64,000 nt of DNA from Schmidtea nova (Eukaryota): positions 79,174,001 to 79,238,000 of the forward strand of contig CM097883.1 in the NCBI GenBank assembly GCA_044892505.1, in the 5' to 3' direction. Under the pieces are notes generated by a model. The model did not search any database. It worked only from the letters and a program-made list of their open reading frames with translations, and was not told the DNA's origin. Position numbers and translations under genes: made by a program. This document shows positions 7,101 through 59,030 of the stretch, piece by piece; positions within the stretch are counted from its first letter, which is position 1, and each line of letters opens with the position of its first letter.

Positions 7101-7715
7101 ATACAGTAGAATTATATTCAGGACTTGCTAAGGTAGCGAGCTAAAGAGACAATAGCTTGAAGCTCAATTCAAAAAGAACGCAAAGATATAAAATTCTTTT
7201 TTATATTCTCTTAGACATGACAAGTAAATTTTTTCAGCCTTCCCCATTTATATTACTCATTGACCAAAGCAAAGATCAAAATATCAAAAAAGAAAGAAAT
7301 AATAATAATATTTTTAAAGGCAAATTAAAGATTAATATAATAAGAATATTTTCGATAAAGTGAAATTTATTCGTATTAGATTAAGTCTTTGATTTTGATT
7401 TGCGTAGTGTTGTATAATAATCATAGGGCTTTAATATCGAAGACATTGAATTACAATTTGATTTAATTGAAGATAATTTTATTGGACAATTTTCCTGGTA
7501 AGTAATATTTTTTTTAAATAGCTAATATTAATATACAAATATATATTAATAAATTTCCCTTCTTAAGAATAATGATTAAAGATAGAAACAATCTGGAACC
7601 GAATCAAAAAACAAAGGTTGGCAAGTGACTTGTCAAACCAAAAACAAAAAATGATTTATTAAAAACTTTTAAAACGAGGGCAGATAAAAAATTATCTGAT
7701 GATGCTTCACAACAT

Positions 7716-8273
7716 AATTTAGTTTTAACTGTAAATAACCAATCAGTAGCAGAAGCAGTTGCATACCCGAGTTACTTTTTTAGAAATAAACAAAAACCAA
7801 CTCTTAGATGTCCCAAATCTGAAGTGGAAATTGACGATTTGAGCAAGATGATATTGCCTTCTCTCAAGAGTTTAAGTGAAGAATCCGAACTGTACATTGC
7901 GTATATGGCATATTATATGGACAAAATAGAAGATGTCATAGAAGACGGGGACTGGAGATCTCATGGAATTCTTATAGGAAAAAGGGGAGAGAAGATCACT
8001 CCTTTATCTCTGATGGATGTAGAGCTTTACAACACCGTAATAGGAGGCTCAATAGGCAGAGCGGTTGAAGGAGAAAGGGCCAGATGGGGTCTTTTCTGGG
8101 GGTTGGTAGCGATGTACAGGGCAATGCTTGTAGGTCAGAGTGGCGACCAGCAATATATCGTTAAAGAGTCCGAAGCTACAGCGACGGTATTTAAATCACC
8201 GCCGTTTAATGTTGACATCACAGAATTCATTCAATTTGCTAAACTTAGAACCAGCTTGTCTATCCCTAACTAA
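7716..8273 (+). other. N: Endogenous viral element: N-terminal half of a rhabdovirus nucleoprotein
   Basis: Frame open 7629-8273. LTVNNQSV..YPSYFFRNKQKPTL, DWRSHGILIGKRGEKITPLSL, LFWGLVAMYR, VFKSPPF, SIPN are collinear with rabies N (FKVNNQVV, YPAIKDLKKPCI, DWTSYGILIARKGDKITP, LLLSLYR, IFETAPF, TIPN) as recalled. Confidence 0.85.
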
Positions 8274-16935: not shown

Positions 16936-18796
16936 TTACATATCCCAACAATTTTATTTACGTCATTTGATTTATTTTTTCTCTTTATGCTAGCTTATTT
17001 TTAGACGTTTCTTATTTCTGGCTAGTTTTTAGATTCCCCTTATATACTAATTTTATTTTACTTTTTTTAGCGCGCTTTTAACTTCCTTGGGTTTCTTCTA
17101 TTTCTCTCGCAACCAAAAATATATAACACGATCGCGTTAGTCCATCAATGCACGGTATGGTGATCAGTCATACCACAAAGACTTTCTAACATTTGCGATG
17201 GGCCCATCCTATTGGTGGTTTGTTGACCGTCAACATGACCTTGACGTTGTTGTGGCTCACATCAACAACTAAACATACAAAACATTAGCTTAACCATCTT
17301 GTTGCCCGTCACAATGTAACGTTGGTAATGCAACAAATGAGTGGGTATTCGCAATCAGTGAGCGTCGAAAGTTCGAAACTATGATTGACCGAATATCTCC
17401 TGGGTCCAAGGGCTACCGATAGAAGGTTTAATACCAATTTTGTCCCTTCAACAATCTATCTATAAACATTCAATAATATTTTAAATCAGAAAATTTCAAA
17501 ATAACTAATCCACATCAATATAAGTTTATTTTTGCATCAAAAGGAATCATTCCGAGCATCAAAACACCAACAAAACATTAAATTTTGCTTAAATTCATGA
17601 TAATTAGTAGATAAAATATTTTTCAAAAAAACAAAAAACTTAATCTGCGTTTAAAATAAAAAAAACTTTAATTTTTATTTGATAAATAGTAACTCTATTA
17701 TTAAAATAGTGAACCCATTGATTAAAAACAGAATATAATTCAAATAACAATTCAAGGTAAGCTATTTTTATCTAATTAGTTTATCGATTTATTTATTTCA
17801 TTTTCAGAATAGGAACTTCCCAACAAAAATCAATCTTCCTCTAACAAGTGTGAAAAATTGGAAAGAATATAGATATATTTTTCTATCCAGGTTCATAACT
17901 GGTATTTTATTTTTTTAGTAACAAGGTGCATCAGCAGCATCGTTCAACACCCGGTTTCGTCATTTCTCCAAAAACTCTTAAGTTGCTCCGCTAAATACAT
18001 TCCCAATATGTTTTAAAAAATTTAGAGTTTCAAATCAAATACTGCCCTCCTTGTCTCGAACTTTGCCCAAATCTCAAATGGAACTTCATCTCATCTCCAA
18101 CAATTCTCACCTCTGTCAATTTTGTATGTCTATAATAAATTATATACTGGATTTTATATCAAAATTGATTTTCTCTTCTCTATAATTCTACATAATTATG
18201 TATGAATGTTTTCTCTTTTTAACTCGAAATCTGACAAAGTAAATTTATTGGTTTTTTATTGTTAACTGTATTTGTGATGGTAATGAATTATAAGCTTAAC
18301 CCTTTGAACCCTTGCCTCCCTGGCCTAATTTCTCCCATTTCCTGAGCTCCCAGACCCAAAGCAATTGTCACTTATCTGCTTCTAACTATGCCTATAACCT
18401 TTGAACTGCTTGAGATAATCAAGCCAAATTTTGTATCTAGGCTCAGTCTCAAACAACAATTCAGCCAGATTATGAAAATTTTTGTTTTTTTACAATGTAT
18501 GAACATAACAATAAATAACGAACACCTATAATTATTGTTTTGATAGGCCATAGAAGAAATAAATTTACATTTAGTAATTGTTTTTTATTATTGATACCTG
18601 GTCATATTTGTTCATTGCCAGAAGTCCACTTTTGTGTGATAACTTTCAAAACAATTATTGTTGCCGGACCCGATGCAAAGAAAAACTTCGCATGTTTTGC
18701 ACCAGTAAAGTTTTTTTTCGCTTCGGAAATTCTTGGTCCTTGGTCTTGGGATTTGCTCTTTTTTCTCGCTTGTAGATTTATTATTATAATCGAATA

Positions 18797-21330
18797 TAGG
18801 GTTTCCATACTCGGTTATCGAGTACTCGGTTACTCGGTTATTTCTCTGTTTTATAAGTTACTCGGAAACTCGGTTTTTACCATTAATACTCGGTTATTAT
18901 TAGCAATTGCAAGATATTTGGTTAAAATTATTTGCTTAAAATTAATTTACCCTTATGATAAATTTAAATAAAATAGTAAGCTTTGCAAATAAAATAGTTC
19001 TTTTTCATATTTAATTTTGTAAACAATTGCAAGAGCTAAATAAATGAATTGTATATCGAAAATATTTGTTTAAAATTAATTTACACTTATGATAAATTTA
19101 AATAAAATAGTATTGGTTTTTCTTTTTCATATTTAATTTTGAAGATATAGGTTTATTCGACAAATTGATGGTAAGTATTTTGTGAGGTTACTTATAGTGT
19201 AGTTACAATTTAATTTTCTAAAATAGCTATGTCAACCAAGAACTCAAATAAAAAGTCTAAAGTCTGGAATTTTTTTAGTAAAAATAAAAATAATGAAGAC
19301 GCAAAATGATTGAAGTGTGGGAATGTTATCTTCTGTAAAGGGTCATCCACAACCGCATTGATCAACCACTTAAAAAGACATGATATATTTATTAATAAAA
19401 AGCGAAATGGTTCAGAAGAACTTCCGATGATATCCACTGGTTCCGTGTGCGCCAAAAGAACTAAAACTGAACAAGGTAATTTATGGAATTACGTGAATTG
19501 AGACTCGTTGGGGGAAATTTTAGCAAAATGTGCTGCTGTGGATGGATTTTCTATACATGCTATTAAAAATTCTTCAGCTCTTAAGGGATTTGTTCAATAT
19601 CGTGGTTATGAAATGCCAAAAAGTGATACATCCATCATGAATCACATTAAAGATTTTGCTGTACAGAAAAGAACAGAATTGGCCAAATACTTATCGACCT
19701 CGAATTCAAAAAATAATAGACAAAAATTTAGTATTACTGTAGGCGAATGGACAGGCAGAAATGTTAAACGATATTTGAACGTAACCTTACACAGTAAAAA
19801 TAAAGCGCATGTATTAGGTTTGATACCAATTGATGGTTCGTACAATGCAGTTAACTTGAAAAATTTGGTTGATGAAAAATTGCTTTGCTTTGGTCTGAAA
19901 TTTGCGGAAGACATTATCGCTTCCACAAACGATGGAGCTGAAGTCATGCAAAAATATGGAAGGTTAATAGAAGCTATATGCCAACTTTGTTTCAATCATT
20001 CTATTTACCTAGTAGTGATTGATGTTTTTTATAAAAGAAATTGTAAACGAAAACATAATTTTAAGTAAATGTGATGATAATTATGACAGTGATGAAAGCA
20101 GTGTAGAAAATTCCAGTAATTCGGATACAAATGCAAACTTAAATTTTGATGATGTTGAAGAAATAATTACAACTTTTAGACCAGATATTGGTAAAACATT
20201 AGCAGAAACCAGAACCGTTATTAAAAAATTTAAAAATTCACCAGTAAGGAACTCAATTTTGCAAAATTATGTCACAGACCATTAAGGCAAAAATTTGAGT
20301 TTGATGTTGGATTGTAAAACCCGCTGGAATTCTCTGATCCCAATGATTGAATGTTTCTTAAAATTGAAAGAATGTATCAAGAAAGCACTGAATGATATTG
20401 GTTGTTTCGATATTTATAAAGAAGAAAATGAGGTAGTTTTGGAAGAAATTTTAAAAATTATGAAACCAACTGAATTCGCTGTTAAGGAATTAAATAAAGA
20501 AAGTGCTACGTTGTTAACTTCTGAAGGTGTTTTTAAATTTTTGTTTGAAAAGCTTCACGAAATTAATACTAGTTTAAGCAAAGAATTATTAACTGCATTA
20601 AAAACTCGAATGTATTACAGACGAAATGAAACAGTAATAACGTTGTTACTATATCTCCAGTGTGGAAAAATGCCTCGAGCCAATGGTGATTTTACATATT
20701 CGTCAAAAATTGCAGTTTGTGAATTTGCAAATGTTCTTTTAAATAAAATATATCCGGTTTCTGCTATTTCTGAATAAGCTGGCAGTGACAGCGTGTCAAC
20801 AGACGATTGTTTTGAAATAGAAGAAACGGATACAAATGAGCTTAATCAAGAACTGCACAGGGCAATTTCATCCGTTTTGGACATTAATAATAGTTCTAAT
20901 ACTGGAAAAAATATAAGAGACTTGAAATCAGATTTTAAAATATTAGATGGAACCAAAAAGCGTACTGAGAATCTTGAACGATTATACGAGGCCTTATTAA
21001 CTATAAAACCAACATCTACCGCTACAGAAAGGGTTTTCTCAACAGCAGGAAATTTCTTGACCAAAATAAGAAGCCGCTTAAACTTTAAATCATTAGATGC
21101 ACTAATTTTCTTAAAGTATTATTTTTTAAATAAATCTAAATAATTCTAAATTCTACTCATCAATTATATACTCTTTTTTATACTCTATAGTCTATAATAT
21201 ATAATGAATAAATGAATTAAAAATATTTGAATTACAAAAATGTTTTTTTCGGTTGAAATACTCGGTTAATTTTCCTTACAGATACTCGTAAACTCGGTTA
21301 GTTAATTTTGCCGAGTAATTAGAAACCCTA
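18797..21330 (+). mobile_element. hAT DNA transposon nested in giant LTR copy 1
   Basis: TIR TAGGGTTTC, perfect 8-bp TSD ATCGAATA, subterminal ACTCGGTTA repeats. Confidence 0.95.
19229..21143 (+). pseudogene. hAT transposase with BED finger and C-terminal dimerisation motif, several stops/frameshifts
   Basis: KSKVWNFF..KCG..STTALINHLKRH; ASTNDGAEVM; CKTRWNSL; PTSTATERVFS. Confidence 0.9.
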
Positions 21331-23453
21331 ATCGAATAATAATATAAATAAAAATTTGTTGGATTGTGGATGTAGATGTAGATTGTTGGTTACAATGATC
21401 AGGTGGGATTTGTGAATAGGCATGCAGTATTTTATAATGAAATTTTTACATGAGATGTTGTGCTTGTTGTGGTTTGGTGAGGTGAGATGTAGTGATTTCA
21501 AATGTGTGTATATACTATTATAGATTTGTTATGGATTTTCTATTGTGTGATTGTATGTTGGATAAAATGAACAATTCAATGATAAATGAGATTGGGTGAA
21601 TGCCTATGGGAATTTTCTGAATACCATATTGAATTTTAAAAAAACGTAATAGGATTCTGGACGTTAATTATTTTGAACAGACCTTGCGCTTGGCCAATCC
21701 ACTACTCCTCATATAGCCAGGTATGAGATGAAGCGTTTTTGGATGTTTGCGTTCATATCGATGAAAATATGGATCAGAACACTGAAAGGACTCCAGCAAA
21801 CTGATGATTCAACAAAGTGACTAATGACGGTACAACGACTAGGTGACCATCATCAGACATATGGAAATGGTTTTAATTAGAAGAAATATAAATATGTATG
21901 TAAATAAATAAATGAATATCAATATAAGGATGTTAGATTGTGAGAAAATATGATCAAAGTAAAAATAAAACTTGAATAGAAAAAATTATAATAATCATTA
22001 CATATTTTACCATAAGATAACACATTATCAAACTTGAATAAAAATGAAAATCGAATCAGAATACCTACGGCAGGGTAACAAGGCATGATTGCTAGCCCGC
22101 ATAACATAAAATTCATGATCCTTACATAATTGAATAGCTTCCCCGCTTGGTTCGGACGCGATTTCTAGAAATCTTTTGAGGGATTAACCTGAGAATTCTC
22201 TCAAACGATTTTAAGCAAAGTTCTCTTTGCTAAAAAACGTTTCACAATTTTTAGCAACAAAATTCCGGAAATTCTGCAAAATTTTGGCAAATTCTCGAAA
22301 GTTCTTGACAAACTCTGATGAAATCCATTTTGATGGCGGTATATATAGTTGGTCAAATTGTTATTTTCGTTGATGCATTAGAACAAATTGTTCTAGAAGG
22401 AATTTTTCGATTCTTGAAAATTAATTTCAATAATTTTACGCAAAATTGAATTATTATTTTTGTATTAAATTTTAAATAAACTCTTAATAATTTATTTTGG
22501 ATCCAAAATTTCATTTTTAAATCAAAGTTTTTCCTAATTTAATTAGTTTATCATAATTTCTAACTAAAACGATTTTCTTTCGTATTTTTTGAATTTTTAC
22601 ACTAAAATTCGAAAATTTCCTTCCGAAAAGATGTTAATATTTCCTATTGTGTTATTCTATTACACAATTGATGTTCTCACATTGTACATGTATTTTTACG
22701 TGTACACTCAAGGCGCTTTTGTTCGTTTCAAATTTTAAACGTGTTTTAATCAATTATTTCATGTGTTCTGCTGTTACTGGGTTGTACTTGGTGTTTTGGC
22801 ACACAGAATTTTAAATCTACTTGTTGCGCGCTCTCTACATGTTATATTACTGCGACATTTAAACAAAACTCAGTTTTTGCCCAACACTATATTTCCCTGG
22901 TCGGTTTAATCGTCGGTTTTCCCACGTTATTCCTAACTTAATACTCGAAGGTAGCTTAAAAGTAATTTAACATACTACTCACGCGTAGCTCAAAAAGTTA
23001 TATTACGCAAAATGAATAATCCTTTCACATTTATGACTTTCATTACTCGCATATACTCGTTTTCATTCATGATCTTTATCTCAGCAGTGGTACAGATTTC
23101 CAACTTTCAACGTCAGTGGTCAGCTCCCTATTCTTACGTATTTTCGTTTGTTACTTTATTTTATTATTTCCCTTTATTTGGTCATTTCCCCCGTCTCTCA
23201 AATTCGCTCTTATTTGTCTATTATCCAGTTCTAACCCTCTTAATTTATTTACAAGGTGATTTGATTTTTTCGCCACGCTTCCAACTACAAGATATGTACA
23301 TAAATAGTTTGTTGTCAGTCAGTGATAGACAGATCGATCGTCTCGACCGACACTTTACGGAGCTGCCCTAGAAGTCGAGCTTCCTAACGTCACTTTCGAC
23401 GGGCACGAACTCCTTTGCTGGGTCGCCATTTCTTTGGCCGATCGACGGATGGT

Positions 23454-23745: not shown

Positions 23746-24805
23746 TCCAGGAACACAAGAACAACCTTTTTAGCTCAAGGAGACAACCAGGGGATTATCA
23801 TCCAATATAAAATGAGTTGGCTGGATCAGGATGAAGATACTTTGAAGGATCGCATGATGGAAATATGGAATAGCAATTCTTTTATTATGAGGGAAATCGA
23901 AGAAGAATCTAGAAAGCTCAATTAACTCTTCAATCACGATGAGGTAGCAACTTCAGCTGATTTCCTCATGTTTTTTTTCTTTTTTTTCCTCTCTTTAGAG
24001 GAATTTATGTCACTGTAGATAACAAGAGGTGGTCTCGAATGTCCGCCGTGACCAACGATCAGATCCCAAGTCTTGCCAACTCAATATCTGCCATGTCGAC
24101 CTCAGTATTAACTGTTAGTCAACATTCGGAAAATCACATTAAGTCTGTAATAAAATATACCATCTGAATCATTCATATTATCGACTATTTTTTATAATAT
24201 TATTCTAGGGAAAAATCCGTTCTCAAAATTCATCAACAAAACAAGCGACAGAACAAGCGACAGAACCCGCCAGAAGAAATTGGCAATCAAGGCTTTGTTC
24301 AAGGATCCTAGTGTAGGAGGAATATGTGGGACTTCTCTGAACAGATTTCTTATTAGAGGATTCCCAGATCCGGTGTCGGAATCATTATCTTGGTGGAAAT
24401 GGATGTATCATAACTCCGACGATAAAGAAGTGAGGGAAATCGCCGTAGGGTGTGAAAAACCTAAATATGGGGAAATCAGTTTGGTTTCATTTTCCAAGTT
24501 ATTGGAAAAACCGACTTTTCTGAACATTCCCAGTTCCATATGTACAGATACCCTGATAAAAGAAGAAATAAAATCAGAGCTGTTCAAAAACAGACGACAT
24601 CAAAAGCACCAGCGTGAGATTCGCCATTCCGCAATCAAGGGACACTACTCCATTGCTTATCAATGCACTGATGAGAATAAAACCTATTTTCCCAAGATTT
24701 TGAGTGTATTTTATGCCAGTTCGTTCATGAAGATTTCAGATGAGATCGTAGGGCTATTCCATAACTCCAAAACCATTAAAAGGGTCTTTTCAAAACACAT
24801 GTCTC
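23731..24805 (+). other. L: Endogenous viral element: rhabdovirus L polymerase RdRp core fragment (stops and frameshifts)
   Basis: FLAQGDNQ (motif C), KLN*LFNHDEVATSADFLMF, PLFRG..KRWSRMSAVTNDQIP, DPSVGGICGTSLNRFLIRGFPDPVSESL, LFHNSKTIKRVF; collinear with VSV L as recalled. Confidence 0.93.
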
Positions 24806-24956
24806 TCAAATTTCTCCATCCGCTTCGTCATCACTCGGAGCTCTACATAGAGGAGCTTCTTTTCCTCTTCCATCTCTGCTACGCGGGCTGTCAGATGCCG
24901 CATGCTCCTGTTCAATCCAGTCAACTGAAGCATCATTTGATCTATCTTGGATTCCA
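24790..24956 (-). other. Coiled-coil-like ORF fragment preceded by a splice acceptor, abutting the right end of the L EVE
   Basis: tgtgttattcag|aaATG then MESKIDQMMLQLTGLNRSMRHLTARVAEMEEEKKLLYVELRVMTKRMEKFE. Confidence 0.4.
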
Positions 24957-26802
24957 TTTCTGAATAACACATACAAATAAATAATAATTTCAGGTCACCT
25001 ACTATCCTCATGCAATTATATTTATCAAGCTTCAACTATTTAATTGGCATCACTACTCAATTCAGGGATCAAGCATTCCTTTAAAAACATATATATTAGG
25101 GGCATTTAATCGCTATTATTTTATCCTATCTAACTATTATTTCCATGATTTTTAATTTCTGGATTTTTATGTTAAAAATTTAATTAAAACTCTATTTATG
25201 TACTAATCTTAATGTCTGTCTTGTATTCTAAATTATTTTTAAAAAATTTGTTAAAATTTTAGCATTTAAATCTTAAATCTTTCGCCGAGGCCTTGACAGC
25301 GGCAACGAGCACTTTTCCCAGAAATTTCGTTGATTTATCCTATATTAAGATTTTAACGGTCGCTATTTTAGTTTTTAAATTTTTTGATATATTTTAAATT
25401 AAGAAATCAAAATTCCGATCGCTTCCCCGTCAAATTTACTCGAGATATTCCGTCAAAAAGGTAAAGCTATATAAATGCAAATGCAAACATCATTAATTTT
25501 GATTAGTGGATTTACAGTATGGAAATTCAATTTCTATATTATAAATATCGATTTGTTTATTTTTAGATTTCAACTGAAATTCCTCAGTACTTCAACAGTT
25601 CGATTAATTTCCAAGAATTTGCCGTAATTTGCTTTATTTTTGTATTTTTGGTAATTTTCATTTGGTTATTTTAGACAACTGAACAGCGTTTTTGGCACCG
25701 AAATAATGAAATTTATTGCGTTTTATGCTCACAATTCTCACTTCAAAACCTTTCGCAAATATTCTGTCTCTCATCAAATCAGTCTCGAGACTCACTGGGA
25801 TCTTTCCATGACTTCTTCCCTAAAATGAAGTGAAATTATTACGGTGATCTTTATGGCCGGTTATCGGTGAAGTACGTGCCAAGGAAATCTCAAATTCAAA
25901 ATATTGCATTGGAAGTTTCACAGCTGTTTCAATCAATTTCATCAGTGCATTTACGTTATTTTTCCCATTCATTTACGGATCTCTGAACAAATATGTTGAT
26001 GGTTTTTCTGTCGAACAATTGTTATGACAAGTTAGCGGTTACATTTTGATAACGCATTTTTGTTTTTGAGTAATTTTATTTTAATACATTTTGATTGTTA
26101 CGACTTTTTGATTTTCGATTAAATCATAATAGGTTAACCCATTGACACACGAAGCCGACGAATCGCCGGTCAACTATATTATGGTATTAAAGCACTAAAC
26201 GCCTGTCTGTCTTTGCATAATCATTTTATGCAATAAAGATCATTGACCACAATTTAATGCAGTAGTAACAGTTCGTTGCATGAGGAAAAATATGCCACCA
26301 ACGTACAGAATAAACGCAAAAAAACCAAAGATTAAAAAAATAGTGGTGGAATGGGTGGAATGGTGGAACCATTGATAATTAGCAAGGTTATTATGAGGAA
26401 AATGCTGTAAATTGGCATTATCTAAAATCTGTGATTGAGATATTAATAGAGTTTATTGTTGGTTTTACTTGTAAATTTTGTAAATGGATTTTATCGATCG
26501 GAATTTAAATAAAATATATTCTATAATTAATATAATTTTATAATGAGACGAATTTTAATTAATACCAATTTTGTACTTTATGCTTGATGAACCAATTTTA
26601 TAGATTGCGAACATAGATGGATAGCTTTTTATGTGGTTACTGTAATCACTATGCGTCTGAGACGAGTGATTAGTTTGCTGGGATCTTAATGAGTGACAGG
26701 TTGAATCCTGTAGGTGATAAAAGTAATCCATATATTATTTTTTATAGTAAATTCATATTAAATTCATAATAAAATTTTTAATTTATAATTTTTCTATACA
26801 TT

Positions 26803-28203
26803 TGCTGGGTTAATGGAGGGGTTAGATCAAAAATGTCTAATAGTGACTAGGGATACCCCGTCCATGATCATGCATAAATATTTTCTATTTCACTCGAGCG
26901 CCCTTGACTATCTCCCTATATAGCCAAGTTGGTGATGCGCAAGGTGATTGAACAATGATGGGCAGGTGAGCTCTATTGCTAGAACTACTCCCCATTTATG
27001 TTCACGGGTTCATGCTGCCGTAGAATGACTTACGCTATTTTATTCATTACAAAAAAACTGAGTGTTCGATTTGTGATCGATTTTGTAGTAAATCTGTTGA
27101 TTAGTAACTAAATCGTTGTATTATGAATACCTAATTCATTTGTCTACCCTGCATTGATGACTGAGCTATTTTCCGATAATTTTTATTTTCGTTCTACTGG
27201 CCAAAAACTTGTTGTGCCCCCTAATAACTATCTTGTGTCGAAAAAATCAACTTGCTCCTCATTAAATGTATCGTGTTAAAATATGAACAGGCCCCCTGAT
27301 AAGTACATGATAAGCCAACTAAAATTTCGGGGTGCCACTTAAGGCTGAGTTATTCTTTCCCTTACGAAGATGTCTTTCGTCTCTAGGTGTTCTGACCCAT
27401 CCTACGTGCAACCGTTTAAAAAATTTCATCAATATTAAATAAATTGTTTTTTAAGATTATCGAAAAATTTATAACTTCATAAATAAAAAGGTCTAACCGC
27501 CGTGTGAAGCCACGACAGCGACTAACTCCCTTGCCGCGTTAGAAGTCGAGGATGCATATCTATAATTATGCATTAAATGAATAAATGGATAACTAAATGA
27601 ACCAATTCGATAAAAAACATGTATTAATTAAAATAATAAAATCATGGGACACATCATACATAAGAATACAAATGAAAAAATTACTGCTGATTTCGAATCA
27701 ATCGATATTGTCGAAAATATGGATCTACAAATTTTAACTTTAGCTCAACTGTTAAATCGTTCAGAGACTAAAAATTCAAAGTAAAATTATTCTTCTAAAT
27801 TTGTGATTTTCAGATCGGTATTTATACTGATCCTGCCGGTTGGATTGACCAATCAGGATCAGGCCGTCCATCAAAGTATGTCGATCATTTTGCTTTATTT
27901 TAAATAATCTTTTGTTTCCGTTTCAGATTTCTCATTGGGTGGTCCTGGTTTTCCGAGTAATTATTTAATAATTTGGACTTTTTTTTATTAATTTATAATT
28001 TTCTGTTTTCAGGCCCCCTCCTGTCGTTCTGTTGTGAAATGCTGATTATTTTCTACTGGTAATTTATCTATTGCCAATTAATTATTTATTTTTTAATCTT
28101 TTTCCGTTATATTTCTTGGTTTTAAGTTATCTATTTAAGTTATTATTTTGTTTTAATTGTTATATTATTTTTTACATTTTAAGGCCATTTGGTGTGTCCA
28201 ACA
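26803..28203 (-). mobile_element. Solo LTR, 1401 bp
   Basis: TGCTGGG..GTCCAACA, 4-bp TSD CATT; homologous to 35008-36477; minus TATAAA at ~27825 beside a CCAAT motif. Confidence 0.85.
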
Positions 28204-29926: not shown

Positions 29927-30649
29927 ATTTTAAGCAAAATTGAATAATTATTTTTGCATAAAATTTTAATAAAACTTTAAATAATTTATTTAAATCTATA
30001 ATTTTACTTTTGAATTAAAGTTTTTCCTAATTTAGTTTAATTAACTAAATTTTTAACTAACAATTTCCTTTCATATTTTTTGAATTTTTAAGATAAAAAT
30101 CGAAATGTTCCTTCTAAAAATATGTGAATTTTTCCTAGTTTGTTATTTTATTACATAATTGATGTTTTTATGTTATGTGTGTTTTTCACGTGTATATTTT
30201 TTGTTCATTTTAATTTTTAAACCTGTTTTAATTAATTATGTGTTTTGTTGTTACTTTGTTTTACTCGGTGATTTAGCTCAGAATTTTAAATATACTTCTT
30301 GCGCGCTCTCTACATGTTGTATTACCGCGTTATTTAAACAAAATTCAGTTTTTGCCCAGCACCCGTAAATACCATTTTGTACTTACGTTAGTACTGCATA
30401 CTTCAGACGAATGCGAATCGGCAGGTGAGCGTCTGCGTTAACGCTACTCCAGATTCAATCATTCTCACGGGTTCCTTAATGGCCGATAGGTCTTCACAAT
30501 TTCCCAACCTAACCCTTTTGCAGGTCACTCTTTCAGGGTACATTTGTCTTACAAGTCAGTCTAAAACTTATCTCAGAGTTGTCGTAATTTTCCTTAGTTA
30601 CTTTTATGAGTGTTAATTTATCGTGGTTTTGGAATAAAACACTAAAACA

Positions 30650-35007: not shown

Positions 35008-36477
35008 TGATGGGACTGTGGATGGGTTAAAAAATATATGTATGTAAATTGGTGTTTTCAAGGGATTACCCGCCCACAATCCTGCATAACTTGTAATCGA
35101 CACGCGTATGCCCTTGACTATTTCCTACTAGCCAAGTTGGTACTGCATACGGTGGTGGAAAATGATGGGCAGGTGAGCTCTGTCGTCGGACATTTTTCCC
35201 CGATAGGAAAAAATCGTCCGGATTTGTAGATTGACATTGATTTCGGTTGGGGAAGATGTAGTTTTCTGTAAGCATTCTTTCTCGGCTTCCCGGAGTGGTC
35301 GGATTGCGATATTGAAAACGATTCCAAGTTCCCTGAACGTCGAGGCCGGAATATAACCCCAGTAGATGACAAAAGTCGGAAATCCACGTTCGTCCAACAT
35401 TAGGACAAACCATTCTGCGTGCCATTTCTCAAATTCTTCTCCCGGAATTATGGGCCAGTTGGCACATCCTCGGTACTGTAACTACTCTTTGGTGATGTAT
35501 GACAACAAAAAATGTTTCCTCAAAAACTCCTTCTCATGGCGCATCTCCTGGTTATATCGGTTTCTACTCTTTCAAAAATCAGTGCCCTTTCACACTCAAC
35601 ACTACTCTTAGTAGAAATAATCACCCTGGTTCTTTGTGTCCCATGTGCAACCCTGTAAAATTAATTTCATTTTATCGCTTTCTCTACCGTGTGTGGAGCC
35701 TTTAAGCACCACGACGCGGACTGACACCCTGGGAACCTGTAGCTCCCAGTCGGCGCCCTAAATATCTATAATTTAATTATTCAATATCAACAAGATTCAA
35801 TATTAACAAATCATATAATTAATATGACAAATTCTATAATATCACTACTTTAATATAAACATGGATGACCAAATCATGAGAAAAATATATATAAATAAAA
35901 CCAAAAATACCTAATTCGTCTGGATTTAATTCAGTCGGTTAATTGATCGGCTAGTAGTCAAAGTTCAGGATCGCTAAATTGGTTAAATCGCTTCGGTCAA
36001 TGTTGACAATTTATGCTCAAAAACAATGCTCAAAAAATGCTGATTTGATTTAAAGTCTGATCAGTATTTATACTGATTTGTCGGGTCTAGACTGACCAAT
36101 CAGGTTTGGTTGCTTCCATGGTAGGTCTAATTATTATTTTGTTTATCTAATTAATTTTTATTTTTTAGATTCGATTCTTTCTAGGTGGTCCAGCTTTTCA
36201 AAACAATTATTTAGTAAAAGGTACTTTTATTTTGTTTTAATTATTAATACTTACATTTTATTTGTTTTTTTCTAGGTGCCTCTTATGCCGGTTAATTTTG
36301 AAAATCTCCTCAATTTATCTATTTTTATTTATAATTTACTAGTAATTCATCTATATTTTATTTATATTACCCTTTTCTTTTTAAATTTAATATTCCCCTT
36401 TCTTATCTTACATTTTTCTTTTTGTTTTAATTATTATAGATTTATTTTCCTCTTTTCTCTGTTTAGCTGGCCCAACA
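35008..36477 (-). mobile_element. Solo LTR, 1470 bp
   Basis: TGATGGG..GGCCCAACA, 4-bp TSD ATTT; collinear with 26803-28203. Confidence 0.85.
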
Positions 36478-50407: not shown

Positions 50408-53356
50408 ATGGTGAGACTTGTATGGATGTTTAAACTATCATTTCTAATTAGTTTAACAATAACCTGTTATTTTATTTATTTCATTCACATCAACTTGCTC
50501 GTTATTCACAATGAAAATCACGATTTTTCTGAAGATCGAAAACATTTATGCAATAATTTATATTGTTCAAAATTCTATCACAATTACGTCAATGTCCATC
50601 TGGTTCCGATGAGCCATTTAGAAAATTCATGGTTGAAAGAACTGGGAGGTCTTTTCAAGTGTAGCGAAATTCACATGAATAAAGTGAATATAAAAACCCT
50701 ATTTAATTCAGTTTATTTAGCTTTGAAATTGAATTCAAGTAGAAGATTCATAATAACAGAAATCAGTTTCTTTCAGCAATGGTACGATGATTTGGACCCT
50801 AACCAAAAGGCCGTGGTGAAGATATTTTTCGACCGTGGCCAATTGCAATTCGTGTCGGGCGGCATTGTGATAAACGATGAGGCGACAACTCACTATTCGT
50901 CCATAATAAATCAAATTTCATTGGGGTTGAAATTTATTAAAATAAATTTTGGATTATGCGCCCGGCCGCTAGTTGGCTGGCAAATCAATCCTTATGGCCA
51001 TTCAAAAGAAATGGCAAATATAATGAAAAAGATGGACTTCAAAGCGGTTTTTCTTAGCCACATTCCGTCGCAATTGTCGAATTTTGAGATGGATTTCCTT
51101 TGGCAGACAAAAGATACCAACGACAGCAATGTCGGCAATTCAATCTTTACTTCAATTATAACAAGCGGTATCGTGGCCCCAAGAACTTTCTGTTTTCATG
51201 GGCATTGTAAAAATAATTTGAAAAGTGCTTCAGAAAGCTTCATCAACTCCGTAATGGAAAGGATTTCCCTACAAAACAACACCAAGCACATTTTAATTCC
51301 ACTGGGCTGTGATTTTCATTTCCAACAAGCACTGGAAACATTCAAAAACTTCGACAAAATCATTGACATTGTCAATTCGAAACAAAAGATCTTTCGAGTG
51401 TTTTACTCAACTCCCGCTTGCTATTTGGAAGGAGTCGCCAATTCCATTAGAACTCTTCAAATCTACAAGAATGACTTTTTTCCATTTGACAAATCACTGA
51501 AAGAGTTTTGGATAGGATTCTATTCTTCGAGACCTAATTTAAAATTATCCATCCGTTTAGCTGAAAGTTACATTCAAACTTGCAAAATGATAACGGCATT
51601 GAGTGACAAGGAGTTTAATAGGAAGCGAATCAAACTTGTTGATGATCTCACGTACTTGTCTGACTTGATTTCGAAGACCCAACATTATGATTACATAACG
51701 GGAAACAATCCAGCACAAATTGTCCAAATGAAAACCAAAGAGCTAAGCGAGGCAATAAAGATCTGCCACGAATTGTCGGCGGCTGGCGTAGAAAGTATAA
51801 TGAAACTGAAATCTGCCAATCGCAAGTCATTGCTCTTCTATGACTGTCCATATCTTGATTTGAGCTTTTGCTCTTTAACTGACAATATCCAGCTGAATAA
51901 AATGGTGAATTTAATTGTTTTCAATCCATTGCCATATCCGTATACAACTTGGATATATTTGCCGGTGAGTCTTGACATTCATCAAACCTACGAGGTGAAG
52001 GACGTCTGGAATACTTTACTACCGATTGATATTGTTCCAATAAATAAACTGATACTAAATAATAAAGATCGGCCATCTAAAAGCAAAGCAAAATATAATA
52101 TTTATTTCAAAGCCCAACTTCCAGAAGCGGGTTACACAGTGTTTTCAATTAGGCGAAAGCGAAAGAATTTCTGGGACTTCAATAAAATATTAGTCTCAAA
52201 ATCCCTGATTCTCGCCCACAAGGTTCACATATCGAATTCTGTAATAAATGTCTCGTTAAATTTAAAAACAAATAAACTCGTGATCAGGACACGAGGTAAG
52301 AAGGTCTCAATGTTTTTAGGAATAAAATGTTACTGTACAAATTTGGACGGGGTTAATGCGTCGTCGGGAGTGTTTGTGTCAGTACTAAAGGATATGTCGA
52401 AAACCATTCACAGTAAACCAACTTCTTACATTTTGGATGGGTCTTTGGTAAAGGAAATTCGCCGAAAGTACAGCAGTGGTATCGGTTTGACAATTAGACT
52501 CTTTGAGGGTCAAGATAATGTTGAAATAGAATGGGTTATCGGCGGAATTGACGAGAACAGTAACTTCAATCGAGAATATGTGTTATCATACAGATCAGAT
52601 ATAACTACCAATAACCAATTTTTCACAGATTCTAATGGTCGACAACTGATTAAACGATTTCTAAAGAGAAATGTCTCAATTGAATCTAATTTCTATCCCA
52701 TCACATCGCATGTATTAGTGAACAATAGTCGCAATGTCGGTCTATTAATTCATACGGATAGAAGCGTTGCGGTCGGTGGCAGGGTACCTAATTCGGTGGA
52801 ACTGCTGATTAATAGAATAATTCTTTCTTTTGATAAAGGAAGTCTCAATAAGCAATTGAAAGATGTCGGGTCAAACCGAAAGATATTAAGTGTCATTGGG
52901 AGAAATTGGATTGAAATCGGCAGTACGAATCATTTGATAATAAATCGAAGATTAAAGTCCAATGAAATATTTAAGAAGCCCATTCTCATGTTCAAAAAGA
53001 ACAATATCGTTGATTTTTATTTGAAAATATTCACTCACATCAAAACCCAACCGAGACATTTGAACATTTTGACTTTGGAACCGATTTTAGAGCCGAACTC
53101 TAATAATGGAATTATTCTACTAAGACTAGAAAATCTAAAAGACATCAGCAGCAACGAAAACTGGAACCGTTTCAACACCGTTCGGGTTGATCTTAAGCAT
53201 TTTTTTGAAAATTTTAACATTTTAGAAGCAATTGAAATGAATTTAGCAGGAGATAAAGAATTAAAAATACTTGACATAAAATTCGGATTTAAGTTTTCAA
53301 TAAAACCAATGGAAATAGTTACGATAAAAATTAAACTTTCTGAGACTACAGATTAA
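50408..53356 (+). CDS. Intronless GH38 (lysosomal class II alpha-mannosidase-like) protein, 982 aa, N-terminal hydrophobic anchor; catalytic residues substituted
   Basis: VHLVPMSHLENSW, FVSGGIVINDEA, WQINPYGHS, LGCDF, YSTPACY, FWIGFYSSRP, QHYD, FFTDSNGRQ, NFYPITS. Confidence 0.92.
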   Translation: MVRLVWMFKLSFLISLTITCYFIYFIHINLLVIHNENHDFSEDRKHLCNNLYCSKFYHNYVNVHLVPMSHLENSWLKELGGLFKCSEIHMNKVNIKTLFNSVYLALKLNSSRRFIITEISFFQQWYDDLDPNQKAVVKIFFDRGQLQFVSGGIVINDEATTHYSSIINQISLGLKFIKINFGLCARPLVGWQINPYGHSKEMANIMKKMDFKAVFLSHIPSQLSNFEMDFLWQTKDTNDSNVGNSIFTSIITSGIVAPRTFCFHGHCKNNLKSASESFINSVMERISLQNNTKHILIPLGCDFHFQQALETFKNFDKIIDIVNSKQKIFRVFYSTPACYLEGVANSIRTLQIYKNDFFPFDKSLKEFWIGFYSSRPNLKLSIRLAESYIQTCKMITALSDKEFNRKRIKLVDDLTYLSDLISKTQHYDYITGNNPAQIVQMKTKELSEAIKICHELSAAGVESIMKLKSANRKSLLFYDCPYLDLSFCSLTDNIQLNKMVNLIVFNPLPYPYTTWIYLPVSLDIHQTYEVKDVWNTLLPIDIVPINKLILNNKDRPSKSKAKYNIYFKAQLPEAGYTVFSIRRKRKNFWDFNKILVSKSLILAHKVHISNSVINVSLNLKTNKLVIRTRGKKVSMFLGIKCYCTNLDGVNASSGVFVSVLKDMSKTIHSKPTSYILDGSLVKEIRRKYSSGIGLTIRLFEGQDNVEIEWVIGGIDENSNFNREYVLSYRSDITTNNQFFTDSNGRQLIKRFLKRNVSIESNFYPITSHVLVNNSRNVGLLIHTDRSVAVGGRVPNSVELLINRIILSFDKGSLNKQLKDVGSNRKILSVIGRNWIEIGSTNHLIINRRLKSNEIFKKPILMFKKNNIVDFYLKIFTHIKTQPRHLNILTLEPILEPNSNNGIILLRLENLKDISSNENWNRFNTVRVDLKHFFENFNILEAIEMNLAGDKELKILDIKFGFKFSIKPMEIVTIKIKLSETTD

Positions 53357-55989: not shown

Positions 55990-58900
55990 AGGGTGCCCTA
56001 GGGAAAAGCCGCAAACCCACTTAGCGGCAACTCCCAATTTAATTAATCATTTAACATTTCCATTAAGGCACGACAGGACCGAGCGACAAGGCACTATATA
56101 AACTGAGAGCAATTTGCCGAGAATGCTAGTTGGTCGAAGAAAATTTTAAAGAATTGAGCAAGAATCTGAAAGTTGAAAAGGAAACTGAAACGGTAATTGA
56201 AAGTTATAGAGTATCGATTTATCAATTTCCTGCTTACCAGAAAGTGAGATTTCCCATTGTGTCGTCTACATTAACGCAGAGTGAAGATAACAGTTATAAC
56301 TTTTGTGATTGAATTGGAGAAATAAAAATTATTGTGTTGGTTATAATTTGTTGTTTGAAAGAAATAACACATTTGAAATCCAAAACTCAAGAAATTTATA
56401 ATAGATTTGAAATCCCAAACGCAAGAAATTTATAATAGATTTGAAATCCAAAATGCAAGAAATTTATAAACACAAAAAATAGGAAAACTAAGAAAAGAAA
56501 ATATTTTTAATAAATGTGTATTGAATATTTCTTCTTGTTTAATTTTGTTTTAGAGGTATCTGCAATAAAAGTTGCAACCCCTACAACACATATCAACTTG
56601 CACTCACTACATCCCACATCACTAACTCATAGCAGAGCACAACAACCCATGTAAAAATTTCATTATAAATTACAACATCCCTATTCACAATCTCACCTGA
56701 TCAGTACAATCAACAATCAACATCCATATCTCACCTCACACATGAAAACTCATACATCCATACAATTTACTTTCTCTCATCCATCAATACCACACACACA
56801 GCATACTGCATCCAAAGGTTTTATCCAAAATACTATTCACATACATTCGAAGTTAAACTAGTAGTTTCCCTCAACGACATCCCATAGCTTAACTAATTTG
56901 CAACCTACAATGCCCTACACACAAGTTCATTTTAACTTAAAATAACCGATAACGCAGATTGCTTATATTTTACAACGTCCTAACCTGCTAGCTATCATTA
57001 CTTACACGGGATAACGTCCTAGTAAGTCTGCTTAGGGCAATAATCATCAAACTCAGATCACTTAAACTACCTATAATGTCCAATGCATATCAATTTCACC
57101 ACCATCGACCGTACTCTCATGACAGAACTGTTACTCAGAAAGCAAAACGATCAAATAAATATATTTTATATCATAGAACATAGAAATAAAAGCAAAGATA
57201 ACACCTTCTGAATACCACAAAACATTGTATTTTTAGAATTTGGTGGGAAAGCCAATGATGGCATTTCAAGGTGACACCAGTTTGAGATTACCGTATGCTT
57301 AGGCCAAAGATTTCATGTATGGTTCCTTGGATCCGATGGAGTTGAGTTATGAATGTTGAAACCACCGAGATTGACTGACGTTTGCAAGACATGGTACTTT
57401 AAGGAGACAAAGAAAGAAGAGAAAAAGGAATTTTCCCTTTTATTAAAAATTGTTTACAATCTAAATTGATTTGAATTGCGGCGTACAAAAGTTATCGTAA
57501 AATTTCCAACGAGAAGTTGTTGGACGAGAGATTCAAACTCGAGAGTGAGTTTGATTAAATTCTAATTTTCCTTTCACACTTGTTGGACAAGAGACAATCC
57601 GTCGTATGCTGTTTATAGAGGAAGCTTGAAATTGATCAGTTTGTAGGCGATTGGAGTGGAGAATTGAATTACCATTGTCGACGCATTTATTCAAATTAAT
57701 AGATTCTGTAACTAAAATTCTTTAATATAATTTATTGGATTAATACATAGAAATATAAATACCAAATTTGTTACATTGGTTGAAAACCAGAAATCGATTG
57801 CAGATTTTTTTCGGATTCACTGTCTGAGAGTTACTAAAATCAATAATTTACATTACATAATAATACCGTATTTTAAAACTACCAATCAGGGTGGGTTTAT
57901 TTATAGCCAAATGAAAATCAAAAAAAGCAAGAAATTATTATAATATATATAATGCTATATAGTATTTAACAAGTTTAACAATCCTTTTATTTTTAGGGGG
58001 GTTCAGAAAATAAATTTTAATATAACTAAAGATTTTAAATATATAAATGACTTTTGAATGAATGAATGAAAGATCCAAGGAATTTAAGCTTGTTTAAATT
58101 TGCTACATTACAACCATTGCCGTTGTCAAGGCCTCGGCGATAGTTTAAATTTTTAACGTTAAATTTTGACAAAATTTAAATACAAGTTTTAAAGTAAGAC
58201 AATGGGGTTAGGATATAAATAAAGTTTATTTAAATTTTAAATATTAAAAACACAAAAATTGGAAGCAGTACGAAAATAATAGTAGTTTAGGCTTAAATAA
58301 CGGCGATCATATACCCCGAATATAGGTATTTCTAAAGGAATATTTGATCCTTGAATTGAGTAGCGACCAGATTCTACCTTAGAATGATGTTGTATGGATA
58401 AATACATAAAAATCTTTCTATTCTCTGAAATCAATAACTTTTGCTTGCTTGAAATGAATGTTTTAATAACTACAAATAAAGTAATATCCGTTGTAGAAGT
58501 TGCAAATCGATTGATTTAATACTCGATTCGGAGAAAGGGCTCGTGAGATACAGCAGCGAACAAATTTTACAGGACCCGAAAACTTGGAAACTGCTGTGAC
58601 AAATGATTTTGATAATTTTGCTATGTTTGTTGATTTTTTATGTATATTTTAAATGGGTTCTTGTGTGAATTTGTTAATAATTTGATGTGGGAATTATCTA
58701 TTTGGATGTAAAAATAAATTTTTATCGATATAAATTGTTGATTTAAATCGCTAAGTAGGATCTCAATGAACGTTTATAGATAAATTATGGATGAAGGGAC
58801 GAAATGGGCATTAAACCTTCTATCGGTAGCCCTTGAACCCAGGAGATATTTGGTCAATCATAGTTTCGAGTTTTTCGACGTTCACACATTGCGAATACCC

Positions 58901-59030
58901 ACCCATTTGTTGCATTACCAACGTTAAATTATGACGGACAACAAGATGGTTAAGCTAATGTTTTGTATGTTGAGTTGTTGATGTGAGCCATAGTAACGCC
59001 AAGGTCATATTGACGGTCAACAACCCACCA
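55990..59030 (+). mobile_element. Giant-LTR-family copy 3, opposite orientation, U3 end not found
   Basis: 58793-59030 is the reverse complement of the 17213/42498 block; 56640-56760 matches reverse complement of 21360-21500; plus-strand TATATAAA at ~56094. Confidence 0.65.
56374..56470. repeat. 34-bp tandem repeat x3
   Basis: gaaatcc(a/c)aaa..caagaaatttataatagattt units. Confidence 0.9.

Follow-up and report, generated by a model that had tools for sequence, protein, structure and literature searches.

A conserved, covarying RNA domain beside the tRNA-Pro primer site of Burro-type giant Gypsy LTRs in Schmidtea nova

A structured block of ~237 nt in the Schmidtea nova genome is the U5 end of a Burro-type LTR, where it lies beside a tRNA-Pro primer-binding site (PBS), and it has a conserved fold that covaries across diverged families. 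The reading that we favor, with a probability of roughly 0.55, is that the block functions within the genomic (sense) RNA of the element, where it would serve as a leader domain, presenting the primer site and activating the primer from which reverse transcription starts. Coordinates below refer to “the window,” i.e., the whole 64-kb stretch of DNA that was analysed.

The block and its host element

A preliminary description of the window reported three copies of the block (17213–17449, 42498–42734, and, in reverse, 58793–59030). All three are found at these positions and align over 237 nt. As had also been claimed, the block is better conserved than the rest of the LTR, with 85–91% identity between copies versus 49–74% in the next three 237-nt intervals. 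Among 30 other copies (435 pairs), median identity is 94% in the block, a figure inflated by the choice of these copies through an exact 26-mer within it, versus 51–57% beyond it. A model built without the window's family recovers all three copies (E 1e-10 to 3e-7), together with three homologous cores (at 26886, 30347, and 35096) that the preliminary description had missed. The copies, cores, and surrounding LTR are as follows:

17213–22886, minus strand (sense): solo LTR (TG...CA) of a Burro-type Gypsy element, carrying a nested hAT-like insertion and flanked by a 4-bp target duplication
17213–17449, minus strand: structured block, copy 1, the last ~237 nt of U5; in 5' LTRs, a 10-nt spacer and then the tRNA-Pro PBS follow
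42498–42734, minus strand: block copy 2, found by the model (E 1.6e-9)
58793–59030, plus strand (sense on plus): block copy 3, found by the model (E 3.4e-7)
26886–27029, minus strand: homologous core of another family, LTR end at 26803 (model, 124 bits)
30347–30492, minus strand: homologous core of another family, truncated at the helix-A side (model, 66 bits)
35096–35235, minus strand: homologous core, partly decayed, within a likely solo LTR at 35008–36477 (model, 59 bits)

The placement of the block at a giant-LTR terminus is borne out by copy 1, which begins a TG...CA solo LTR flanked by a 4-bp target duplication at 17209–17212 and 22887–22890. A broken hAT-like transposase (19502–21143) is nested within this solo LTR. 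More generally, the outer end of the block is sharp, and homology runs for kilobases to a second conserved end. The TG...CA repeats measure 2.5–8.5 kb, and an exact 4-bp target duplication flanks seven of the eight stretches that have both ends, out of 23 stretches examined. The block adjoins a common internal sequence in 8 of 30 loci selected solely by the 26-mer. On the opposite strand, these junctions read the CA of the LTR, then 10 nt, and then an 18-nt site exactly complementary to the 3' end of the genome's tRNA-Pro plus CCA. The two LTRs are 99.85–100% identical in each of five full elements; one full element encodes a 5,006-amino-acid ORF on the PBS strand, and a second ORF, of 5,098 amino acids, was also found. 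Because the CA is followed by 10 nt and a tRNA-Pro PBS, and because the ORF lies on the PBS strand, the block constitutes the U5 end, and the window's plus strand is antisense to the element. The orientation of the LTRs is thus taken from the PBS and ORF of full-length relatives, and it agrees with the earlier view that the plus strand of the block is antisense to the element's promoter and ORF. A SINE, Penelope-type, or Helitron end is ruled out by the far LTR end, the target duplications, the PBS, and gag-pol.

The 5,006-amino-acid ORF includes gag, a zinc knuckle, MATH, a Monjiviricetes-type fusion protein, PR, RT, RNase H, integrase, and ankyrin domains, with the env-like fusion protein positioned between gag and pol. 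By its ORF layout, the host element matches the published description of Burro (GYPSM1), a group of giant Gypsy-like LTR retrotransposons of planarians (PMC6431247). Like the host element, Burro has a single ORF of ~5,000 amino acids with gag, zinc knuckle, MATH, mononegavirus-like fusion glycoprotein, PR, RT, RNase H, integrase, and ankyrin, in elements of 20–30 kb that are present in thousands of copies (PMC6431247). No named Burro/GYPSM1 occurs among the 120 homologs listed, and the likeness is one of protein domains, element size, and copy number. The available part of the Burro text describes the elements by their proteins and size, and includes neither U5 RNA structure, nor the primer, nor the plus-strand origin (PMC6431247). 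Two other papers mention Burro, with no structure in the portions available (PMC8532177, PMC13238120). We found no description of the block in the open literature searched on Burro structure or PBS, or on planarian LTR covariation or ribozymes.

A covarying fold across diverged families

The exact 26-mer has 7,486 matches genome-wide (control, 0), meaning that the window's family has at least 7,486 copies, and a core motif around hairpin E (see below) has 7,175 (control, 1). Clustering 207 motif matches at 80% identity gave 40 clusters, two of which were dropped as non-homologous. The remaining 38 indicate that ~38 diverged families share the block architecture; these families are related, and counts across them are not independent. 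Some are full Burro relatives that are ~57–60% identical across env-pol, and others are 11–12.5 kb long with gag but no pol match; LTR length across the families measured is 1.4–5.6 kb. Young elements, whose two LTRs are 99.6–100% identical, retain an intact block, and this includes those of 11–12.5 kb that lack a pol match, as would be expected of a signal needed in cis. A PBS pattern has 3,085 matches, and a version of the block adjoins the PBS in all 30 loci read, ten of which come from other LTR families, where the PBS complement is followed by the same motifs. As minor observations, the LTR of one family has a 209-codon open frame on the sense strand that stops ~450 nt before the LTR end, and a separate repeat carries the hairpin-E motif pattern yet is unmatched by the model. 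Outside the S. nova genome, none of the 239 motif matches listed from metagenome and viral contigs has all three flanking motifs; the model gave partial matches to the bait motif only, across 79 metagenome loci, and no env relative was found in the viral contigs searched.

LTRs usually diverge too fast for alignment, and priming and packaging signals are known in structural detail for a few retroviruses and yeast Ty elements. Here, a single genome supplies >14,000 motif matches in ~38 families whose LTR bodies share little and whose U5 domain keeps its fold. Natural covariation sets of this kind are rare for an animal Gypsy leader, and this one provides a testable model of the start of reverse transcription in an env-bearing giant element. 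The block is also a universal marker for locating Burro LTR ends and a candidate new RNA family. Its parts, as numbered in copy 1, are as follows:

17213–17282, minus strand: helix A (17213–17226 with 17262–17275) and a U-rich motif (17274–17282); in 5'-LTR copies, this motif and the PBS spacer are predicted to form a stem similar to U5-IR
17299–17336, minus strand: helix B (17299–17305 with 17330–17336), hairpin C (17307–17321), and a conserved internal loop (17321–17329), with covariation
17343–17398, minus strand: helix D (17343–17357 with 17382–17398), invariant junction motifs (17358–17363 and 17378–17381), and hairpin E (17365–17376)
17401–17409, minus strand: conserved motif complementary to tRNA-Pro nt 49–57 (T-arm and loop), candidate primer activation signal
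17419–17426, minus strand: near-invariant pyrimidine-rich motif (sense)

Covariation was measured in 30 families. Five further rows were removed from the 38 (mis-parsed anchors or indels), leaving a 33-row alignment, and removal of the three representatives of the window's family gave alignments of 30 rows. In helices B, C, D, and E, 23 pairs are paired in 92.2% of 689 cells, compared with 32–45% for slid controls. Double changes number 188, versus 65.2 ± 7.7 in shuffled alignments, with none of 500 shuffles reaching the observed value; kinship of the families inflates these counts, yet columns with four to six pair types are common. Sixteen columns are invariant, and one U-G pair is invariant in all 30 families. 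The covariation reported from three copies therefore persists in the larger alignment, and the conserved, covarying fold is shared by diverged families.

The nested stems named in the preliminary description are present in the block. The exchanges that it had noted between copies are common to the family: among 71 distinct copies, the helix-B pair is G-C in 50, A-T in 19, and G-U in two, and the hairpin-E pair is A-T in 42 and T-A in 27. In the copy-2 arm as quoted there, one base disrupts a pair that 69 of the 71 copies retain. The helices form a chain of hairpins, and a closing helix was not found. There is modest support for a predicted kissing interaction between the loop of hairpin C and that of helix A in most families, weak in the window's own. 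In 31 families (seven of the 38 rows were dropped for this test), loop complementarity scores 13.7 for own partners, versus 12.3 for cross pairings (permutation p 0.0017) and 8.9 for a control window. One apparently covarying kissing pair, from a single-copy family, fits the antisense strand only and was discounted as support.

The block belongs to no Rfam family; an Rfam 15 search, with no match in the window at the gathering score, and the 30-family alignment uphold the view of it as a structured element, conserved and covarying, at the terminus of a giant LTR. With E up to 10, the block and 14 further loci gave chance-level matches only (best E 1.6), with no match to covariance models of the ribozyme, IRES, snRNA, SRP, RNase P/MRP, or group I/II families. 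Compared by eye with features of the hammerhead, HDV-like, twister, and hairpin ribozymes, the HCV-type IRES, RNase P, and group II intron domain I, the block has short motifs at most, mostly antisense, and lacks the defining core of each. A tRNA-derived Pol III promoter, such as a TRIMp3 or SINE head, was also rejected: the B-box is not conserved, with a full B-box-like run in 3 of 33 families (by eye, against the consensus), and bases beyond the tRNA-like core vary.

The preliminary description had named a ribozyme or an IRES-like leader as candidates, and positive evidence was found for neither. A new class of self-cleaving or self-processing ribozyme, trimming the genomic RNA or making a primer, would accord with the absence of an Rfam match and with general features of catalytic RNAs, i.e., 16 invariant columns that include junction bases, an invariant U-G pair, a predicted kissing loop, and a size of ~200 nt. 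Yet a known ribozyme core is recognised on neither strand, the hairpin chain lacks a closing helix, the full 18-nt tRNA PBS removes the need for self-priming, and a cut in U5 would part the template from R; we regard a ribozyme as quite improbable. An IRES-like or translation-control leader is more improbable still. It would suit the inferred position of the block in the 5' leader, with a long stretch between the block and the main ORF, but that ORF starts ~5 kb past the PBS (one element examined), the block is kept in elements with reduced coding capacity, and no Rfam IRES matches it.

The working strand

On the evidence of GNRA loops, folding scores, the series of pairs in a helix that crosses the LTR boundary, and primer complementarity, the sense strand, i.e., the genomic RNA, is probably the one that works. 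The preliminary description had preferred the antisense strand, on the grounds that most single changes give G-U wobbles on the strand starting TGGTGGG. In the larger sample, the overall tally of wobbles is even (134 sense versus 129 antisense; 7:6 in the window's family).

Read on the sense strand, the four-nucleotide loop of hairpin E has a GNRA sequence in 18 of 23 families, spanning 14 different stems and four loop sequences; the window's own family is not among them. On the other strand, a GNRA, UNCG, or CNNG loop is found in none of the 23. Wobbles in hairpin E favor sense by 17:2. The folding z-score is lower on the sense strand for 14 of 15 diverged copies and for 11 of 13 PBS-bearing copies, including four of five from the window's family. 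The RNAalifold scores of the two strands are close (−21.3 versus −18.7).

If the antisense strand worked instead, it could do so as minus-strand strong-stop DNA that folds to aid strand transfer, or as an antisense RNA. Several observations are consistent with this. Copy 1 folds better on the plus strand (z −2.7 versus −0.4), a difference that is not general across copies. Wobbles in helices A and D lean toward antisense (sense:antisense, 23:40 and 19:31), and three one-sided variations (G-C/G-U or U-G/U-A) fit antisense pairs. When DNA parameters are used, the antisense z-scores for five copies of the window's family are −2.6 to −4.9. An invariant motif on the antisense strand also resembles a 5' splice site. 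Against these stand the restriction of GNRA loops to the sense strand and the better folding of sense RNA in most families; moreover, antisense RNA from solo or 3' LTRs would lack the spacer that completes helix A. Intron-less copies, with the splice-site-like motifs joined, were not found: the search gave 38 matches versus 67 in a control, and none of eight loci read was intron-less, a weak test given that antisense RNA need not be copied back. Overall, we consider a function of the antisense strand improbable.

In all families, the invariant junction motif on the antisense strand is a consensus-like 5' splice site, and a pyrimidine-rich stretch and YAG follow 60–70 nt later. The sense strand of the same motif resembles the 5' end of U1 snRNA.

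The primer site and a possible role in reverse transcription

The preliminary description was right that the terminus is conserved and structured, but it overlooked the adjoining tRNA-Pro PBS, which offers an ordinary class of explanation. LTR elements usually have a spacer of few bases between the LTR and the PBS. Here, in the 30 PBS-bearing loci read, the spacer from the CA to the PBS is 6 or 10 nt. With a longer spacer, integrase would have to trim a longer end. Of 32 PBS-bearing rows, 26 have the U-rich motif or one of its variants as the best predicted partner of the LTR end plus spacer, and one pair of this boundary-crossing helix runs U-A, U-G, and C-G across families.

The motif at 17401–17409 complements tRNA-Pro nt 49–55, as a 7-mer in 25 of 33 families and as a 6-mer in 30 of 33, and its common variants retain T-arm pairing via G-U. 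With shuffled tRNAs, 12% of trials do as well at any site (P 0.12) and 1.7% do so within nt 46–58 (P 0.017). The T-arm match, which was noticed after the fact, is of modest significance only. No families with another primer tRNA were found (18 matches only). All of the families found use the same primer; the T-arm step is therefore suggestive only. Other contacts with the tRNA (D-arm, anticodon, and variable loop) show no consistent register. The primer supply is large: tRNA-Pro(TGG) genes form a tandem array (period, 308 bp) near 459.6 Mb, and there are 1,117 pattern matches genome-wide.

These observations are compatible with the following scheme. TATA-like motifs lie ~0.9–1.2 kb upstream of the LTR end in the three families read, suggesting that transcription starts there and that the block lies in the 5' leader. 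Helix A would close across the LTR end onto the 6- to 10-nt spacer, placing the PBS directly after a stem, as in the retroviral U5-IR. With the last 18 nt of tRNA-Pro annealed to the PBS, a strand of the T-arm would be freed, and this strand could then pair with the conserved motif ~200 nt upstream, as with the primer activation signal (PAS) of HIV-1. The kissing loop and the GNRA hairpin would compact the domain, and the invariant junction bases might bind Gag or RT, possibly adding a role in packaging. The two most invariant motifs may serve such Gag or RT binding, or may make tertiary or catalytic contacts.

In its 18-nt PBS and its predicted stem across the LTR end, the block appears to work like the U5-PBS leaders of other retroelements. 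In retroviruses, the end of the LTR pairs with adjacent sequence at the PBS to form the U5-IR stem (PMC3601003), and the PAS of HIV-1 base-pairs with the 5' T-arm of the primer tRNA (PMC11251516). Both a stem across the LTR end and an upstream motif complementary to the 5' T-arm strand of the primer thus have precedents in the parts of these sources available to us (PMC3601003, PMC11251516). The arrangement differs in that the stem here includes the 6- to 10-nt spacer 5' of the PBS, and in that the candidate signal lies far upstream, within a multi-helix domain kept across families that have diverged in env-pol; by comparison, the PAS of HTLV-1 is predicted to lie 10 nt from the PBS (PMC11251516). 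The yeast element Ty1 likewise has a structured, cis-acting 5' leader around its PBS, where T-arm and D-arm contacts with the primer and a pseudoknot are needed for retrotransposition (PMC4974528, PMC3592414). However, as far as these sources were available, the Ty1 contacts lie 3' of a 10-nt PBS, inside GAG, whereas the domain described here lies 5' of an 18-nt PBS, inside U5. Like the block, the Helenus, Ajax, and Cassandra TRIMs have conserved small-RNA-like sequence inside the LTR, but these are miniature, non-autonomous elements with tRNA- or 5S-derived Pol III promoters, in contrast to a giant element with a tRNA-like motif that lacks a conserved B-box (PMC10886601).

Much of the evidence for primer presentation would also suit a packaging or dimerisation signal bound by Gag, with the T-arm match due to chance. 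This alternative shares the sense-strand and covariation evidence. It would also account for retention of the block in elements with no pol match, and it fits the zinc knuckles of the polyprotein and the T-arm P of just 0.12 at any site. Retroviral packaging regions contain GNRA hairpins and kissing loops, which counts in its favor, while packaging signals are usually located 3' of the PBS, which counts against it. Kissing loops are also described in the available part of PMC3592414. The tie that helix A makes between the domain and the PBS spacer argues for primer presentation, and no self-complementary loop was noticed in the block; we judge packaging or dimerisation as the main function to be unlikely, although a real possibility. 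A more radical version of the primer reading is that the ~200 nt form a tertiary U5 RNA machine, built from the kissing loop, the GNRA hairpin, and the invariant core, which grips the primer at several points or is catalytic, and which is combined with a plus-strand origin that lacks a polypurine tract, in a replication cycle unlike that of other Gypsy elements. We offer this as a speculative and rather unlikely proposal.

The 3' LTR and the rest of the window provide further observations. In eight junctions of full elements, the 3' LTR is not preceded by a polypurine tract. All eight 3' junctions share a short hairpin (a 5-bp stem with a three-base loop) and, after it, a G/C near-palindrome whose outer pair covaries, and in the window's family the 3' junction mirrors the U5-spacer-PBS junction over ~26 nt. 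Elsewhere in the window are two rhabdovirus-like endogenous fragments, one of a nucleocapsid (7629–8273; E 1.7e-15) and one of a Mononegavirales polymerase (24154–24963; E 1.8e-27). Finally, an uninterrupted ORF of 982 amino acids at 50408–53356 encodes a family-38 alpha-mannosidase and is surrounded by repeats.
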